Part shown: positions 2,090 through 10,225 of the stretch, piece after piece
Layout: each line of letters opens with the position of its first letter
How positions within the stretch are numbered: position 1 is the stretch's first letter
IMG/VR virus record: IMGVR_UViG_3300045988_085028
Span: 1 to 21,572 of that record
DNA: 21,572 nucleotides
Direction: 5' to 3' (one strand)
Source: a virus
Taxonomy: Duplodnaviria > Heunggongvirae > Uroviricota > Caudoviricetes
Position numbers and translations under genes: made by a program
Notes under the pieces: generated by a model
The model's input: only the letters and a program-made list of their open reading frames with translations
The model's database searches: none
Told to the model about the DNA's origin: nothing

Positions 2090-4084
2090 TTATTCAGCCT
2101 TAGCAAAAGTGGTCATAGTTGTTCCACTGAAAGTGAATGACCTGTCTGTAAGAGTAACATCCTGAATAGCAAAGTAATCGCCAACACCAGCGCCATTTAC
2201 ATAAAACTCGAATATCTCAGATGTATTTTCCGGAATAATATTATTAGCAATATAACACGTAGATAAAGAACCATTTGTTGATGGTAAAGTTCCAAATAGC
2301 GTTGCATCCGATGCAGCATATATCGAACTGCTTAAATAAATATTTATATCAACATTACTCTCATAAGTAACAATTAAGTACACCCGGTCGTTAACCTTCC
2401 ACCCTCTGTCTTTTATCTTAGTATTAAGTGATAGCTTGTTAGAACTAGGGTTCGTTACGGTATTAATGGTTATTTTTGCTCCTATTGAGTTGTATCTGCT
2501 TCTGGTTACTGTATTACCAGTATTGTTCATTGTATAAAGGATTGCCCTGCTTTCTGCAAACGTCCTCATATTGATCTTGCCTAAACAATCTCCTTCCATA
2601 ACTTGTGGGCCAGACACAGTTGCACCAATATAACAATCAGTAAATACAGCATGAGCCCTGTTGTCAGTGCTTGATGCAAGTAATGAAAGTTTAAAGTTGC
2701 CCTGATCTGCAATCCAGCAACTATCAACCTTAACTACAGCATCATTGTCAAGAACAACAAACCTTCCTCCCTCATTGTAATATCCTACAAAAGCATTTAC
2801 ACCGCTTATTTTTACTACTCCATCTGGAACCGTAAAGATATCGCCTTGTATCGCTTCGCCATAGTACCCGCCAACAATATTGGTCACTCGGGTATTTAAG
2901 TACATGCCATGCCCAATGCCGAACTCAAGGTCACATCCAATTAAGCTTAAACCTTCAATAGGGGAAGTACCAGAAGCATAAAAGGCATATTCACCGACCT
3001 TATTTGATGCAAATCCACAGTTATTGAACGTTACGCGGTTGTTAGCCCCAGCAAGGTGAACTCCGCGATTTGGCGCAGGAACAAAAGAACAGCAATCATA
3101 GGTATTAAGCCAGTCGTTTATAGTATAGAAGTTCGCCACCGCGCCATTGATGAAACGACAATTATGGGTTCTTCCTAGGTGAACATATTGAATTCGGCAA
3201 GGATAGTTGGCGATGTTGTTCCCATCAACTGTAACGTGAGAGATAGATGTGCTACGTCTTATAGAGTCAGTTTCGTAGTACATGTTGACAACTGCCTCTC
3301 CAGTGAACCCACTCCCCGCAATAATGAATGACTTCTCAACGCCATCCCCGAATAGGTCAACAGTGCCTATTGTTAAATCAACTGGTGACTTAACATAGTA
3401 AGTTCCTGCAGGGACAAACAGCCTCTTTCCTGCCGATAAAGCAACTGCTGCAGCAGCATTAAAGCTAGCTGAGTTATCTGCCGCTGGATCACCAGTAATG
3501 GGGAAAAATTGAGCAACAGAAATATAATCTGCTACCGTCACTTCGTACCATGGCAAAGCAGGAGATGACGGAAGAGTGCCACTACCACCGGTGTAGATTT
3601 TATTATTATACCACCACCAGTTATCAACATTAGATAACGCCCCCTCCTGCCATACACCGCCTAACGAGAAATCAAGACCGTAAGAAGTAGCTATCTGACT
3701 TAATGATAATGTTGCCCCTCTGTCAGAAGCTAATTCTTGCCTTAATTGGTCAGGGTCATACTTCAGGACATTAGGAAAATAGAACTGCTGCGCACCGTAC
3801 GCATCATAAACAGCCATAGAATGGCCTTGCACAGTTACGAATTTGGCAATCTGTCCGTTATATACAGGATAACCAGCAGCGTTAATGATGATTGGTTGCG
3901 AAACAGGAACGTGAGAACCGTCTTCGTTCTCTACATAAACCGGAATCTGGTTTTCAGTATTTACCGGGTCAGTGTCAATTTTACCGATATAAATTTTGCC
4001 ATTAGCTACGGCTTTAAAAGAACGCGCCATAGTGAAGAGTTGCGAAGGCATGCTAACTACAACATTGGCTGTAATGTCTGTCAT
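2090..4084 (-). CDS. Tailspike protein: P22 gp9-type N-terminal head-binding domain fused to a divergent beta-helix receptor-binding/depolymerase domain (664 aa)
   Basis: The N-terminal ~110 aa ([42 protein letters not shown]...VLKYDPDQ) match the conserved P22/Sf6 tailspike head-binding domain from memory. The remainder is not P22- or Sf6-like, is AT-richer, and has asparagine/glycine-ladder character typical of right-handed beta-helix depolymerases. A GGAG lies about 9 nt upstream of the ATG at 4082-4084. Confidence 0.9.
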
Positions 4085-4166: not shown

Positions 4167-4354
4167 GTTGCGTTGGCTATCTGTCAGTAGTTATGTACTG
4201 AAGGAGGTAATTCTTTATTCTTAAGTCTCATCCATGCAGAAAGATTCGTTGGTCCGTCTGGCTCATTGATATCAACATCTCGTGTGTGGTTTATTAAAAC
4301 GTCTCTCGCCATCCCGATAACATACGAAAACTCATGACCGTAGTCGTAGCATCT

Positions 4355-4416
4355 GCCGGAATAGTTAGATTGTATTTGTTTTAATGCCGGAATAGTTAGA
4401 TTGTATTTGTTTTAAT
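4355..4416. repeat. Perfect tandem direct duplication of a 31-bp unit (gccggaatagttagattgtatttgttttaat x2, followed by a partial gccgga)
   Basis: Units at 4355-4385 and 4386-4416 are identical. The unit is 31 bp (not a multiple of 3) and lies at the 3' end of the ant reading frame. Confidence 0.9.
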
Positions 4417-5093
4417 GCCGGATACAGTTCGCGGAATAATGCCTGTGATCGGTTGGCATAATCCCATAACCATACAAGGCTGTTTGCTTCTTTTGCAGAA
4501 AGCTCGTTGGTTTTCTTCTCTTGTTTGCCAATGAACTCACCTTCAAGCACTACCCTGTGGATGTACTCTACGGCCAGCGGGATTTGTTCAATTGAAAGTT
4601 CATCAATGCTGTCAATACCAAAACGCTGATGAACCATATTGTATGCATCGTCATAACGAAGTCCTTTCTTTCCTACCAGCATGTTTACTGCATCGCGTAG
4701 CGGTGTTCTTTCCTCAACAGTGGTTTTCTTTCCTTTTACATACTCGCCATGTTTGCGAATTGAAGGCAGAACTTCTGCTGTTACCCACTTGCGGAATTTG
4801 TGCGGGACTGAACCTTTATTGACTGCATCGCGGCAGCGCAGAACCAATGTATACATACCTGATTCGCTCACAATGCTTAGATTCTGCTCACCACCAAGGG
4901 TGTAACTTAAAGTTACTCCCTTTTCATCGTCATCAAGTGCAGTAAGCGCCTTGCGTGAGTTAGTCAGGGTTAAAGCATCACAAACATCTTTTGCTACAAA
5001 CCACGGCTCACCGCACTTGTTGATGACGCGGATTTCACTGTCGCCGAATTTGAAGATGGTGAAATCGTTTTGTGCCTTTGCTATACTTTTCAT
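4365..5093 (-). CDS. ant: Antirepressor Ant (BRO-N/KilA-type), C-terminally truncated by the 31-bp duplication (242 aa as encoded)
   Basis: Sits downstream of arc on the same strand, as in P22 immI. N-terminal region is BRO/antirepressor-like. AGGAA lies about 9 nt upstream of the ATG at 5091-5093. The last 7 codons (GIKTNTI-stop) are read from the second repeat copy in a shifted frame. Confidence 0.8.
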
Positions 5094-5152
5094 GTCAATA
5101 TTTCCTAATCCGATTTGTTGATGCCGAAGCCCTGACTGTTACAGCAGTTGGG
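5083..5152 (+). ncRNA. sar: Candidate sar-like antisense RNA (about 68-70 nt) complementary to the ant ribosome-binding site and start codon
   Basis: Putative promoter inside the ant 5' end: -35 TTGAAG (5049-5054), 16-bp spacer, -10 TATACT (5071-5076). Putative 3' end at hairpin GAAGCCC...GGGCTTC (5116-5147) followed by AACTTTA. The implied length matches the 68-69 nt P22 sar RNA, and the position (arc-ant intercistronic region, antisense) matches too. Confidence 0.45.
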
Positions 5153-5161
5153 GCTTCAACT

Positions 5162-5323
5162 TTACGCACCAATGCGCCCTTCCTTCTTAAAGCTTTCCAT
5201 TACTCTCTGATAAATCTCAGAGTTAACAGACCGACCATTCTCTTCCGCCACCTTGCGTATCAAATCCAATACTTCTTTAGGCCACCGCAAATTGAACTGC
5301 GGCATCTTGCTCATTCCTTTCAT
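5162..5323 (-). CDS. arc: Arc repressor (53 aa, ribbon-helix-helix)
   Basis: MKGMSKMPQFNLRWPKEVLDLIRKVAEENGRSVNSEIYQRVMESFKKEGRIGA is near-identical to P22 Arc from memory. GAGGTG lies 3 nt upstream of the ATG at 5321-5323. The ORF-track entry 5162..5533 is an upstream in-frame extension with no support. Confidence 0.9.
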   Translation of the reverse strand: MKGMSKMPQFNLRWPKEVLDLIRKVAEENGRSVNSEIYQRVMESFKKEGRIGA

Positions 5324-5338
5324 ATTCACCTCACAATA

Positions 5339-5386
5339 TAGGTCCACGGTGGACCTATTGAGAATATAGTAGACTGCTTCTATCAT
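5339..5386. promoter_or_regulatory. Divergent immI control region carrying the Mnt operator (palindrome TAGGTCCACGGTGGACCTA, 5339-5357) and the Arc operator (ATAGTAGACTGCTTCTATCAT, 5366-5386), overlapping the Pant/Pmnt promoters
   Basis: The 19-bp perfect palindrome matches the P22 Omnt sequence. The adjacent 21-bp site is the P22 Oarc sequence with one or two substitutions. Both lie in the 90-bp gap between the divergent arc and mnt starts. Confidence 0.75.
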
Positions 5387-5413
5387 GTCAATACACTGAC
5401 TTGGAGTAATGGC

Positions 5414-5668
5414 ATGGCTAGAGATGATCCGCACTTTAACTTCCGCATGCCTTTGGAAGTGAGAGAAAAATTGAAATTCAGAGCAGAGGCGAATGGGAGA
5501 TCCATGAACTCCGAGCTGTTGCAAATCGTCCAAGATGCTCTATCGAGACCATCTCCTGTAAAAGGTAATCGCAATGAAGCTGAACGATTAGCCGAGATGC
5601 AGGCTGAACAGTTCAAGTCTGTGGTATTTGAGACACTTAAAAACATGTATGGCAAGGATGCAAAATGA
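5414..5668 (+). CDS. mnt: Mnt maintenance repressor (84 aa)
   Basis: MARDDPHFNFRMPLEVREKLKFRAEANGRSMNSELLQIVQDAL... matches P22 Mnt from memory. GGAG lies 8 nt upstream of the ATG. Its stop overlaps the next start (ATGA). Confidence 0.9.
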   Translation: MARDDPHFNFRMPLEVREKLKFRAEANGRSMNSELLQIVQDALSRPSPVKGNRNEAERLAEMQAEQFKSVVFETLKNMYGKDAK

Positions 5669-6246
5669 TCGATTACAACCCAGCAAAAAAAGAAATCATC
5701 GCAGCTAAAAAGTGCCTAGAGCAGATGAAATCATCTACAAACCATGATGATTTTGAAATGCACTGGCGAGAATGTCTTGGGCATATAGAAAAGTCTTTCA
5801 GTAAGTTGCTCTGTGCAACAAAGCCGGTTAGTGGAAAATTTAGCAGCCACTTCAACCAAAAGTTCATGCTTAGAAAAACAGACAAAACACTTGCTTACCT
5901 TCACCAGGCAAGGAATGCTGATCATCATTCCACTATGGAAATCTCAAAACTTGAACCTCCTTATACTACTCTTGGGGCATTTCCGGGAGCAAGAAGTCAT
6001 TATATTAAAGAGTTAATCATTGATTCAACAGGGGAAATAGCAAAATACGAAGGCGACCCTATGATAGTTGAGTTTCATCCAGCAACAACTATGCCTATAA
6101 CCGTAAGAAACCAAGGCAAAGATTATCCACCTCCAACAGAACATCTTGGCGAAAAGCTTGTTGATATACATCCATCTGTTCTTGCCTATCTCGGTATACA
6201 ATTTTATGAAAAATGGATAGATGAGTCGTGTGCAACGTTTAGATAG
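5665..6246 (+). CDS. Hypothetical soluble protein (193 aa), translationally coupled to mnt; function unknown
   Basis: ATG at 5665-5667 overlaps the mnt stop (TGA 5666-5668). Uninterrupted ORF in an AT-rich segment. No TM segments. I do not recognise the family. Confidence 0.6.
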   Translation: MIDYNPAKKEIIAAKKCLEQMKSSTNHDDFEMHWRECLGHIEKSFSKLLCATKPVSGKFSSHFNQKFMLRKTDKTLAYLHQARNADHHSTMEISKLEPPYTTLGAFPGARSHYIKELIIDSTGEIAKYEGDPMIVEFHPATTMPITVRNQGKDYPPPTEHLGEKLVDIHPSVLAYLGIQFYEKWIDESCATFR

Positions 6247-6463
6247 TTATTTTTGATAATTTCAAGTATTTCCTCTTGACTTTGATTTACCCAAACGTGA
6301 TCACACTCATGAAACCAGATTATGCTTCCTGTTTCGCCTTGTGCAATATAGGTGATCATGTTTTCATTAACAATTATTACTGAGTTATCATGTGCGCAAT
6401 TTAGTTTTATCAATTCGCATATCCTATCGTGACAAAGTAACTAGAAAAACTAAAGAGGTTGGT

Positions 6464-6958
6464 GTGTCTGATTCTATGAGTTACGCTGTGCTAGTTGCCG
6501 CAACTCTATTTATGGGGATAGGGTTGCAGATTGCGTGGTTCTTTTTTTCTAGTTTTATTAAACGCAAAAGAATTGAATCAAGGATATCTGAGATTTCTAT
6601 TGCTATAGGGAAAAATGCTGAAAATCCAGAGAATGAGGCCTGCGCACTGAATTACCTTAAAGAAAAGTTTTCCCCTGAAAAATTTGAAAATAGAATTACT
6701 GATGCTCTTGGATTGGTAATATCAGTAATTCATACGCCACTAAGTTTGCTGATAACAGTGTGGTACTTCGCCATGATCGCCGGAAGAATATTTGGTTTAA
6801 TGAATATAGAGCCTGTAGTTCTTTGGGTTCCAATGATACTGCAACTGTTGTTAAGCGTTGCTATCTTTATTTTTTCTGTTTTTATAAAAATTGTCTTTGG
6901 AAGATACCCCGGAGAAGCTAAGGGATTTAATAAAGAATTCATAAAAACTATAAAATAA
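6464..6958 (+). CDS. Predicted inner-membrane protein (about 4 TM helices) at the position of P22 sieA; candidate superinfection-exclusion protein
   Basis: Hydrophobic segments [47 protein letters not shown] and [24 protein letters not shown]. The ORF track starts at GTG 6392 with no RBS. GTG 6464 has AAAGAGG 6 nt upstream; ATG 6476 is the alternative. Stop at 6956-6958. Lies between mnt and gp16 like P22 sieA, but sequence similarity to SieA is not established. Confidence 0.55.
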
Positions 6959-6980
6959 ATGCCGTCCTTGGCTTACAGTG

Positions 6981-8822
6981 CTACTGCCGGGTCGCTTCGT
7001 TAGCTAAGAGCGGGCGCACGGCAGTAGCAGCCTGATTTAGCGCTCTTTCATAAGCCGGCGTTCCAGCTTTAGTGTTTGCCAGACGTAAGAGAGCATTCCT
7101 TGCTACTTTGGACTCATACAAGCGCATCATTGCACCGAAACCAGCCTCAATCCCCATTGATACGCCAAGAGTCGCAGTTGCGCCAATCGTCCTTATCCTG
7201 TTGGCTTGCGATTGCCCCGTCTGAGTTACTACATTTGCGGTGTCTGACCTTGCTGTTTGCTGTAGAACTTCATGAAGAGCATCAAGCTCTTTCATGTGCT
7301 TTCCAGAAAAAATAGTGTTGTAAATTTCACCGCCTGACTGAGATTTCAGCTTATTAACTTCAGTGATGAACTTGGCTGGAGAGTCACCGGCCTTTTCCGC
7401 TATTTTGCTGACGTAAGCTGCACGCATAGCATCTTTCCCTTTATCATCCAATGCGCTCCAGATTCGTTTCACGTCAGATGGTTTTCTGCTTAATACAACG
7501 GTATTTATAAGTTCAGGACTGGCTTCACTGCTTGCCTTGTTGAGCTTGTTAGCAATGTTTTTATTAAGCACCTTATTATAAACGTTTGCATAATCGGAAT
7601 TTGCTTTAAGGTATTTTGCTGCGTCTGATGCACCGAGGTTTTTAGCAACTGCGTTACGAAGGTCTTTTGACATTGCATTCTCTACCATATTGGTAGCTGC
7701 TTTTGCCTGGTTGGGGAAGACCATAGCATCTCCCTGAACATTAGATCTAAATGCTGTTCTGTGCTGACGCAAGAGATCAAACGTAACATCCAAATCAGTT
7801 GCAGGGTTTGCTAATTCTTCACGTAGGTTACGCAAGGATGTAAGCAGGCTTTGATTGGCAGACGTCCCAAGTCGTTCCTGTCTTGCGATCGCTGTATTCA
7901 GAGCATTCATAGTATTTGTGGTATCAACTGCGGCATTACCCATTTTATTGGTGACGTCATTGATAACAGCGCCAGCGGCATCCTTCCGCCCCCTTAACGT
8001 GGTGGTCAGAGATTTCACCACATCATCAGGGTTGTACTCACCAAAACGATCAAAATAATTACTTACCAGCTTACTACGCGTTTCATATTGCTCCGCTCGC
8101 TTTGAGCCTGTCCCGAGCAAAGCCCCCTCGGCATCCTGAGTAAGTCCGCGAGTGAAAGCATTTTTCGGCGGGATAACATCAGATGTCATTGGTGTCACGC
8201 CCATCGATTCTGATGTGGCAATTTTCTTCGCCACTTCTGGCGCAATATCACCTTTTATAGCCGTTATTCCACGCCCTATTCCCTTTGCTGCTGCGGAAAG
8301 AACACCCTGAGCGGCAAGGTTAACTCCGGCATTTTTAGCTGCATTTTGTGCGAAATCGCCTTTCTGATTTGCGGCCTCTGCCAGCGATCCAATAGCCATG
8401 CTTCCTGCCGTTCCAACTCCTGGAACTAAATACCCACCAATTGTTTCACCGGCTTGTGCGTATGGGTCTGTCGGTCTGTCTACTGGACGATAAACATCAT
8501 CCAAAACTTTTGGCCCACCAAGCCCCTGGCTGATTGCATTAATCAGACTTGCGCCACCCTGCAATACGTCAAATGGTATGTTTACCAGACCACGACCAGC
8601 CTGCTCTGCAATTTTCCCTGCACTTTGACCACCTGTGAGCCAATCGCCAGCTTGTTGCATCAATGATGGTTCTTCCCGTGTTGGTGCATTATTGGCCTGA
8701 TTAACTGTTTGTTGCTGAACAGCCTGACCAGCAAAATACTCATCAATGGCGGTGCCAATATCTTCGGTGCTCGTACCATCAGGGAAGGTAAATGTCTTAC
8801 CGTTTGCAGTTACTTTCATCAT
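6981..8822 (-). CDS. Ejection (DNA-transfer) protein gp16
   Basis: 613 aa, begins [16 protein letters not shown] like P22 gp16 (about 609 aa). Last of the gp7-gp20-gp16 trio. Start overlaps the gp20 stop. Confidence 0.85.
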
Positions 8823-10225
8823 TCCACCGTAAATTGAATGCCTGATTTTGAGGTATATGATCCAACCTGATTCCTTGGTTCTCCTGAAGGTGTCGAATCT
8901 TGTGCTGGCGCTGCGTCAGTATTCATTGACATATACCGCTTAACGGCACTCCCCAATGATTCACCTTTTTTAACATCCAACCCCAATATCTGACCGCCAT
9001 TACGCGATTGTCCTGGATTGCCATTCGCGCTCATCCACTCGGCTTTAAACTCATTAAACTGCGCGTTTCGTCGCTCAAGGTTTGCCATCGCATCAAGCCA
9101 TCTTGCGACCGTCTCAGGGTTATCCATGTCAGTTGGCGCACCCTGTCGAACGATCTCAACGTCTTTATCCGTTGCTGGGCCGGGAGGTAGGAATTTAAGA
9201 ACCTGACTGTTAACAAGGGCATTTTGGCGAATGCGCAAATCACGCAATGTTGTATCGCTTCCGGTAAGTTTTGCGAACATGTTCTGTGCGTTACCGAACA
9301 AACCTGTCGTTGGTTTTTCTGCTCTGAACTGTTGAGCAAGCGCACTCATAGAATTGGCTGAGTTTGATGATGCTGTAGCATTGTTTACAGCCGTCTCGAT
9401 GCCTTTTTCCATGTTTACTGACAGCTTAGGTGCTTCGCTAATCAACTGCTGAGCCTTTTCCTGCGCTTGCTGCATCTTAAACCCGAACTCTTGCTGATCC
9501 AGAGCCAAGCGTTGTGCTGCGATATTGTGCCCTGTCATTGCTGACTGATAGGAAAGGTTTTGCCCTCTCGCCTGAAGTGCCTCGCCAGCCTGATTGCTGC
9601 GGATTGTCTCTGCCAGCCTGCCTCGGTCAATCTCACGACCAGCCATCTTGTCCTGAACATTGAAGTAGTCAATCGGACCGAGAGCAGCCATCCCAAGGTG
9701 ATCAACAAACTCACCAAATCCTGAAGGATTCTGCTGATACATCTGAGCAACGCTGTTAGGGTCAACACCGACGCGAGTCAGTTCCTTGGCGTTGTTTTGC
9801 AGCCATGATTGCATTGCTTCTGGAGACGATGACGCAAGGCGTGCGCCAGCCGCTAAGGTGCCGATAGAATTGCGCTGGTCTTCATCAATGAATCCCATGC
9901 CTTTACGAACGGATTCAATCTGGTCTGGATATTGAGTAGCCAACTGACGCAAAGCACCGCGATCACCAGACGCATAAGCATTAGCGTACGCCTGCTGAAA
10001 TTCTTTCTGCCGCTGAGCCTGCTTTTCCTGCTGAAACACCCCTGCAATGCCTGAAAGGCCTTGCAAAGCAGTAAGCCCAACATTGTTAGCGCCTGAACGC
10101 TCAATATCATTGTTCTGCCTGATAAGCTGAAGCGTATTGCCGATGTCATTTACGCTCGGAGCGTTTGAGTTGACGCCGCCGATACCAGCTAACAATCCGC
10201 CATTTGATCCTTGCCAAGTAGCCAT
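8819..10225 (-). CDS. Ejection protein gp20
   Basis: 468 aa (P22 gp20 is about 471 aa), [10 protein letters not shown]... N-terminus, conserved position between gp7 and gp16. Confidence 0.85.

Follow-up and report, generated by a model that had tools for sequence, protein, structure and literature searches.

A putative stand-alone HEPN-like protein and the exclusion protein SieA occupy separate accessory slots in the immI region of a P22-like Escherichia coli prophage

Phage P22 needs no gene but sieA for exclusion, and one copy in the chromosome is enough (Leavitt et al. 2024, mBio, PMC10883804). The position just downstream of mnt, held by orf59a in P22, is taken in other P22-like phages by unrelated, uncharacterised genes (Villafane et al. 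2008, PMC2629481). In the HEPN superfamily, which includes the HepT/MNT toxins as well as AbiV, AbiD/F, AbiJ and Ymh, the residue that follows the arginine of the Rx4H motif is mostly N, D or H, an acidic residue is frequent in helix 2, typically as Ex3[KR], and inserts usually separate helices 2 and 3 (Anantharaman et al. 2013, PMC3710099). HepS of prophage Gifsy-1, a stand-alone HEPN defence protein with the residue pair R100-H105, is an inactive tetramer until a phage tail-tip protein opens it, after which it cleaves the anticodon loops of tRNAs (Nature 2026, PMC13043305). Here we analyse a stretch of 21,572 nucleotides, the IMG/VR virus record IMGVR_UViG_3300045988_085028 (the window), and in it the interval from mnt to sieA (5414-6958). 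A preliminary description of this DNA had proposed that two genes downstream of mnt, one for a soluble protein of 193 amino acids and one for a small membrane protein, form a new module for exclusion or abortive infection. We find that the interval lies in the immI or "ant moron" region of a P22-like prophage, consists of accessory DNA and combines two elements that are independent of each other. What had been described as the membrane protein is SieA, an exclusion protein that has been studied well, while the open reading frame (ORF) of the soluble protein, ORF193, encodes a putative HEPN-like RNase and candidate defence protein.

The assignment of the membrane protein as a type A SieA, and hence as a protein that is not new, is straightforward. 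The product of 6464-6958 (plus strand, 164 amino acids, GTG start) is identical to P22 SieA in 150 of 164 residues (91%) over the full length (E=4e-113), and phrog_7745, "superinfection exclusion SieA-like", matches residues 25-188 of the long version of the reading frame with E=3e-107. The published cytoplasmic motif that is conserved in the SieA family, FxRYPxEAxxFNK at residues 145-157, is matched in the alignment at exactly these residues. As known sieA genes do, the gene lies between a gene 16 homologue (6981-8822, minus strand) and a gene 9 homologue, the tailspike gene (2090-4084, minus strand); it thus sits in the same slot as P22 sieA and has the same ribosome-binding site and GTG start. 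In its longest reading the frame spans 6392-6958 (plus strand, 188 amino acids), and this is how RefSeq presents it, starting from the GTG at 6392. The extra 24 codons, however, are a leader that is common to unrelated downstream genes, so that the RefSeq gene is over-extended. The true start is almost certainly the GTG at 6464, giving 164 amino acids, because neither P22 nor the other cassettes are homologous upstream of the ribosome-binding site AAAGAGGTTGGTGTG. The protein had been introduced as an unrecognised one with four transmembrane segments and about 165-188 residues. That it resides in the membrane and is an exclusion factor holds true; we see, however, three hydrophobic blocks (residues 5-32, 78-113 and 112-150) and not clearly four segments, the literature predicts three transmembrane segments for SieA, and the length is likely 164 residues. 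The notion of a new protein fails on the SieA homology, which the preliminary description had itself named as one half of what would refute it. SieA acts on its own and would block injection by P22-like phages independently of ORF193. Two points set the gene apart from that of P22. It belongs to a prophage of E. coli and not of Salmonella; we assign this host because 5600-6460 is 100% identical to the chromosomes of the E. coli strains ST12468 and ET245. Additionally, the region of the P22 promoter PsieA is replaced, and expression of sieA in the window probably depends on read-through from Pmnt or on a promoter that escaped recognition.

The second element is an inserted cassette, whose borders emerge from the alignment with P22. 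Pmnt and most of mnt are highly similar to their P22 counterparts; the similarity decays after ~5595 and is absent until 6446, where it resumes at the sieA ribosome-binding site AAAACTAAAGAGGTTGGTGTG. As judged from this alignment, an insert of ~850 bp, roughly 5600 to 6446, carries ORF193 (5665-6246, plus strand) together with a small convergent reading frame, ORF69 (6204-6413, minus strand, 69 amino acids). Because P22 similarity is lacking between ~5595 and 6446, the insert replaces, by the same comparison, orf59a, the mnt terminator and PsieA of P22. The last 13-25 codons of mnt belong to the inserted cassette. The segment forms an AT-rich island, with a GC content of 0.34-0.40 over 5600-7000 versus 0.44-0.53 on both flanks; this compositional contrast, and with it the view of the segment as prophage accessory DNA beside immI, had been described correctly. 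ORF193 occupies the same slot as orf59a just downstream of mnt. The two genes are unrelated, and ORF193 differs from orf59a also in overlapping mnt and in being accompanied by a conserved antisense ORF.

We next turn to the question of whether the cassette and sieA belong together. Among 5,426 complete E. coli genomes, the ORF193 cassette is present in 21; twelve of these carry the sieA type of the window and nine lack it. The reverse situation, this sieA at ≥95% identity without ORF193, was found in 24 records from 23 genomes. In the nine genomes that lack this sieA, the match breaks off at the sieA start codon or immediately behind it (query position 1053/1054), and for five of the nine the similarity to the cassette begins only at 5628. 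Metagenomic ORF193 copies that are 99% identical precede two unrelated genes, both sharing the leader and the GTG: one encodes a 109-amino-acid coiled-coil protein with a single transmembrane segment (phrog_5962), the other a 129-amino-acid secreted protein (phrog_2651) that is followed by a YobH gene. The two genes thus assort independently, and the two-gene module has to be given up: P22 lacks ORF193 and its SieA works alone, and near-identical ORF193 cassettes stand upstream of unrelated genes. Cargo is exchanged separately at two places, the slot downstream of mnt and that of sieA, and we conclude that the interval combines two independent accessory elements within a variable ant moron. 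The former slot takes up accessory genes in general; other P22-like prophages of E. coli have there, for example, a ClpP-like protease subunit and an immunity protein of the Rap1a/Tai family. At the sieA slot, cassettes are exchanged exactly at the shared ribosome-binding site and GTG (6446-6466 in the window; 8728-9129 and 8728-9406 in two further loci, L007 and L008). The phrog_5962, phrog_2651 and YobH genes found there have no assigned function and may serve exclusion in place of sieA.

ORF193 encodes 193 amino acids. Its start overlaps the stop of mnt, with ATG and TGA nested in ATGA, and AAGGA lies 8 nt upstream. In agreement with the preliminary description the product is predicted to be soluble, the maximum 19-residue hydropathy being 0.66 and no hydrophobic segment being present. 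That description had also taken both proteins to be of no known family, which holds for ORF193 only and not for the membrane protein, SieA. For ORF193 no named family was found in searches of Pfam, NCBIfam and PADLOC, and the protein is therefore without a characterised relative there; the only match is PHROG 23516, a group without assigned function, and a literature search returned no paper on phrog_23516 or on the RefSeq accessions. Searches of 50,697 deposited phage records on the DNA and the protein level did not find ORF193, which we saw only in prophages and metagenomes. The family is nevertheless large. While a word-indexed search gave just seven relatives, an exhaustive hidden Markov model search of 1.84 billion representatives returned 1,772 clusters with E≤1e-3, 1,297 with E≤1e-10 and 140 with E≤1e-30; the clusters are formed at 50% identity, and the family comprises at least 1,297 of them. 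Family members are nearly all 170-220 amino acids long, no cluster bears a name, and no Pfam domain was detected in the members checked. A Pfam scan of the long members gave no informative fusion, the sole match being DUF6941 with E=4.5e-4, below the cut-off.

Conservation was read from two alignments of 126 and 87 diverse sequences with ~25% mean pairwise identity. Four residues, W34, Y78, R83 and H88, are invariant in both. P157 is invariant in one alignment and 98% conserved in the other; R70, D73, L75, L76, A82 and H160 are conserved to ≥90% in both, while P156 and G162 reach this level only in the 87-sequence alignment. The core consensus consists of Y-L-x-Q-A-R-[NDH]-A-[DE]-x-H-[STG]-[ILV] and Y-x-P-P-x-x-H-L-G. 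We considered a 2H-phosphoesterase reading of the two histidines and rejected it: the motif of the 2H family is H-h-[TS]-h, while the ORF193 family has H-[STG]-I and H-L-G.

An AlphaFold2 model of ORF193, built with the 87-sequence alignment, has a predicted local distance difference test score (pLDDT) of 94.3 and a predicted template modelling score (pTM) of 0.85. It contains helices at residues 5-23, 27-55, 60-88 (kinked at 73) and, as the final one, 170-192, along with a beta-rich unit at 94-154 and a loop with the PPxxHLG motif. The predicted model thus shows the four-helix up-down bundle of HEPN proteins, and R83 and H88 lie at the C-terminal end of the helix segment 74-88, which is the end of helix 3. 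In 87-98% of sequences an N, D or H follows R83 (N 53%, D 23% and H 11% in the 126-sequence alignment; N 75%, D 20% and H 3% in the 87-sequence one). With the HEPN superfamily, ORF193 therefore has in common a predicted four-helix bundle, an Rx4H motif, here R83-x4-H88, that ends helix 3, and contexts in mobile and defence DNA (PMC3710099). From these features we regard ORF193, with moderate confidence, as a HEPN-like protein that stands outside any named HEPN family. It differs from the described families in having no adjacent MNT nucleotidyltransferase, in the position of its insert, and in a second conserved histidine motif, PPxxHLG, that is not described for HEPN families.

Several results weigh against this assignment, and we gather them here. 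The acidic motif of helix 2 is conserved only moderately and fits HEPN loosely: position 31 is E in 65% and D in 11% of the 126 sequences and E in 44% of the 87, and position 35 is K or R in 43% and 21%, respectively; ORF193 of the window itself has E31-x3-R35. The beta insert of about 80 residues (89-169, including PPxxHLG) lies between helices 3 and 4, which is unusual for HEPN. No HEPN family of Pfam matches any of the 126 members at E≤1, and ORF193 matches no defence family of PADLOC-DB v2 at E≤1. Sequence-profile searches of the PDB gave chance-level matches only, none of them HEPN, and when the family profile was compared with a neighbouring Ymh protein by hhalign, the probability was 0.1 with a single-sequence template. 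In Foldseek searches of the PDB the best match had E=1.7 and only generic helical bundles were returned. Finally, some family members reside in ordinary chromosomal neighbourhoods. A Foldseek search of BFVD likewise gave no significant match.

The genomic surroundings of the family were sampled at a set of homologous loci (numbered L002 to L035), most of which are prophage or mobile DNA. We found homologues after a tailspike gene at a prophage end, between siphovirus tail genes (two loci, one of them the lambda-like tail-fibre locus L028), after gpD and a lysozyme gene in a P2-like prophage, beside a HipA/helix-turn-helix toxin-antitoxin pair in a prophage with T7-type capsid genes (L021, 4583-6170), next to an IS1595 element, 6 nt downstream of a gene of the Ymh family of HEPN proteins (L033, 6198-7567), and beside a terminase remnant and a DUF2971 gene (L035, 7638-8504). 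None of the distant homologues (31-53% identity) has a SieA-like neighbour in the contexts sampled. An all-against-all BLASTP comparison of the small ORFs around seven homologues revealed no conserved partner except the pair of ORF69 and a 65-amino-acid ORF in L028.

HepS is among the closest of the described defence proteins. Both HepS and ORF193 are single prophage genes of roughly 200 amino acids without a conserved partner, both have a four-residue spacer in the motif (R100-H105 in HepS, R83-H88 in ORF193), and HepS is expressed constitutively in the lysogen, as ORF193 would be. The likeness is drawn from the published description of HepS. No sequence relationship was detected; the HepS structures are not among the PDB matches that Foldseek returned for ORF193, and the 80-residue beta insert between helices 3 and 4 belongs to ORF193. 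In the Gifsy-1 record of strain LT2 we found no ORF with R100-x4-H105.

How the cassette is expressed can be deduced from the region around mnt. The divergent, overlapping promoters Pmnt (plus strand, TTGAGA-17-TATCAT) and Pant (minus strand, TTGACA-17-TATATT) lie at 5358-5391 and score 10/12 and 11/12, respectively, in a consensus scan; their position agrees with the annotated P22 cluster of Pmnt, Pant and operator, and the stretch is nearly identical to P22. The mnt gene (5414-5668, plus strand, 84 amino acids) is recognised by Pfam Arc (6e-28) and Repressor_Mnt (3e-11). With Pmnt conserved, and with the ATGA overlap and the Shine-Dalgarno sequence in place, expression of the segment in lysogens, as had been suggested, is very probable. 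ORF193 would be translationally coupled to mnt and made constitutively in lysogens from Pmnt. The 3' part of the cassette and the sieA leader (6247-6463, plus strand) lack the P22 PsieA; neither a promoter nor a terminator was called on this strand, and 6240-6470 holds no RNA element or stable structure (RNA fold z-score -0.27). The Pmnt transcript probably continues through ORF193 into sieA, because there is no terminator or recognisable promoter ahead of the latter.

The explanation that we favour, and to which we give about an even chance, is that SieA is a separate element and that the inserted ORF193 is a stand-alone HEPN-like RNase, made in the lysogen, with a candidate role in defence. 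ORF193 would then be a metal-independent HEPN-type RNase with the motif R83-N-x3-H88. An always-active stand-alone HEPN nuclease would be harmful, so ORF193 is presumably kept inactive; by analogy with HepS, AbiV and other stand-alone HEPN proteins, a phage product may trigger it, upon which RNA cleavage would abort the infection. The beta insert and the PPxxH160LG loop are predicted to share one end of the bundle with R83 and H88, as deduced from the up-down topology rather than from coordinates. They may form the sensor of the trigger or a substrate-binding element. The preliminary description had seen in this locus its best candidate for a new defence system. As a two-gene module the proposal does not hold; for ORF193 alone it stays plausible, and on grounds of motif, model and analogy we consider the protein a credible and reasonable, if putative, single-gene anti-phage candidate.

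Three other readings have to be weighed against the one that we favour. First, ORF193 could be a non-catalytic helical bundle with a different role in lysogeny or regulation, such as modulation of the immI switch, lysogenic conversion or anti-defence. The HEPN call indeed rests on a predicted structure and a short motif without profile-level homology, some members are found in non-phage chromosomal contexts, and the ant-moron slot is known to hold non-defence genes too (PMC2629481). However, arginine, histidine, tryptophan, tyrosine and the second histidine are invariant or nearly so at ~25% mean identity, which points to catalysis or precise ligand binding; the position of the motif and the N, D or H after the arginine closely fit HEPN, and most of the sampled contexts are phage or mobile DNA. 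We therefore hold this reading to be unlikely, though it deserves serious attention.

A second reading makes ORF193 a toxin and Mnt, a ribbon-helix-helix protein whose C-terminal tail comes from the cassette, its antitoxin. ORF193 overlaps a ribbon-helix-helix gene by ATGA both here and in locus L018 (1328-2157), where a 62%-identical homologue is paired with an 83-amino-acid Mnt-like protein that is only 25% identical to Mnt; moreover, the left boundary of the cassette lies inside the 3' end of mnt, so that the Mnt tail travels with ORF193. But six contexts (L002, L013, L021, L025, L028 and L031) have no ribbon-helix-helix gene upstream, Mnt is well characterised as the repressor of Pant with its C-terminus serving as a tetramerisation coil, and recombination in conserved mnt sequence accounts more simply for the junction, which leaves the toxin-antitoxin pair improbable. 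The surroundings in L018 are not P22-like; a UmuC-like fragment and a gene for a 210-amino-acid membrane protein lie nearby.

Finally, a RexA/RexB-like system, with ORF193 as soluble sensor and the membrane protein as effector of a single exclusion or abortive-infection module, is a very remote prospect and largely refuted by the gene distribution: the genes are adjacent on the same strand, probably co-transcribed as the P22 mnt terminator and PsieA are missing, and found together in twelve E. coli genomes, yet nine genomes have ORF193 without this sieA and 23 the opposite, P22 SieA suffices without ORF193, the same cassette precedes the phrog_5962 and phrog_2651 genes, and the distant homologues have no membrane partner.

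Returning to the cassette with its putative HEPN-like RNase, we consider the small ORF that accompanies it. ORF69 starts with TTG, has AGGA 8 nt upstream, converges on ORF193 and overlaps its 3' end in antisense by 43 nt; it is unannotated in the two RefSeq records examined. In L028, beside the ORF193 homologue P0174 (53% identity), a 65-amino-acid ORF occupies the same convergent, overlapping position. The two small products share 37% amino acid identity, with a score of 66 versus 24 ± 4.3 for 2,000 shuffles (z=9.8), while identity of the DNA is just 53% and no other reading frame gives the signal. Because homology is seen at the protein level in one frame while the DNA has diverged, we take ORF69 to be, very probably, a genuine gene that accompanies some members of the ORF193 family. 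No homologue of it was found in the other ORF193 contexts sampled. The L028 copy weakly matches Pfam FlbD (E=0.018). An 80-amino-acid gene that related prophages carry between arc and ant (L007, 7268-7510, minus strand) likewise has a sub-threshold FlbD match (E=1.7e-4), a small-protein pattern like that of ORF69. ORF69 may be expressed late. One may speculate that ORF193 and ORF69 are a defence and self-immunity pair on opposite strands, in which the nuclease is made from Pmnt, while ORF69 is transcribed only once PLate transcription crosses the ant moron in the direction of the tailspike gene and then switches ORF193 off, as a protein inhibitor or by antisense transcription. We think this arrangement doubtful at best; if true, it would spare the prophage's own lytic cycle from its abortive-infection system.

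The remainder of the region follows P22. The sar antisense RNA of immI lies at 5095-5161 on the plus strand (Rfam RF00262, 65.6 bits versus a gathering score of 43, E=1.2e-12). The arc repressor gene (5162-5323, minus strand) corresponds to the C-terminal 50 residues of a long ORF (Pfam Arc, 7.6e-30), and its equivalent in ET245 is a 162-bp coding sequence in the RefSeq annotation. The ant gene (4184-5093, minus strand) is apparently disrupted: a 31-nt insertion after "...QSNYSG" shifts the frame. This results in a 242-amino-acid product (4365-5093, minus strand) and an orphan ORF of 42 amino acids (4184-4312) with the normal Ant C-terminus, compared with the 300-amino-acid Ant of ET245 and P22. 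The N-terminal domain of Ant is of the Bro-N type and not P22_AR_N. The gene 16 homologue, which forms the right flank of the ant moron, was assigned from the ORF list and P22 synteny; it encodes an ejection protein, a target of SieA in P22, and is named "DNA transfer protein" in RefSeq. At the other side, the 3' receptor-binding part of the tailspike gene, itself taken from the ORF list, is AT-rich (2200-2800, GC content 0.34-0.38), while the N-terminal head-binding part has a normal GC content; this contrast is consistent with a swapped receptor-binding domain.

In summary, the SieA half of the locus was already known, and ORF193 is the new part, a member of a family without a name in any annotation resource. 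The analysis corrects the annotation in three respects, namely the over-extension of sieA to 188 amino acids, the unannotated ORF69 and the existence of two separate cargo slots. The position of ORF193 under the immI maintenance repressor, together with the accompanying antisense ORF, makes the proposal readily testable in E. coli. Stand-alone HEPN nucleases of prophages have only recently been shown to be complete defence systems, HepS (2026) being the example. If our reading is true, ORF193 would add to them a large unnamed family, with no fewer than 1,297 clusters at 50% identity, whose beta-rich insert next to the active site may point to another mode of trigger sensing.

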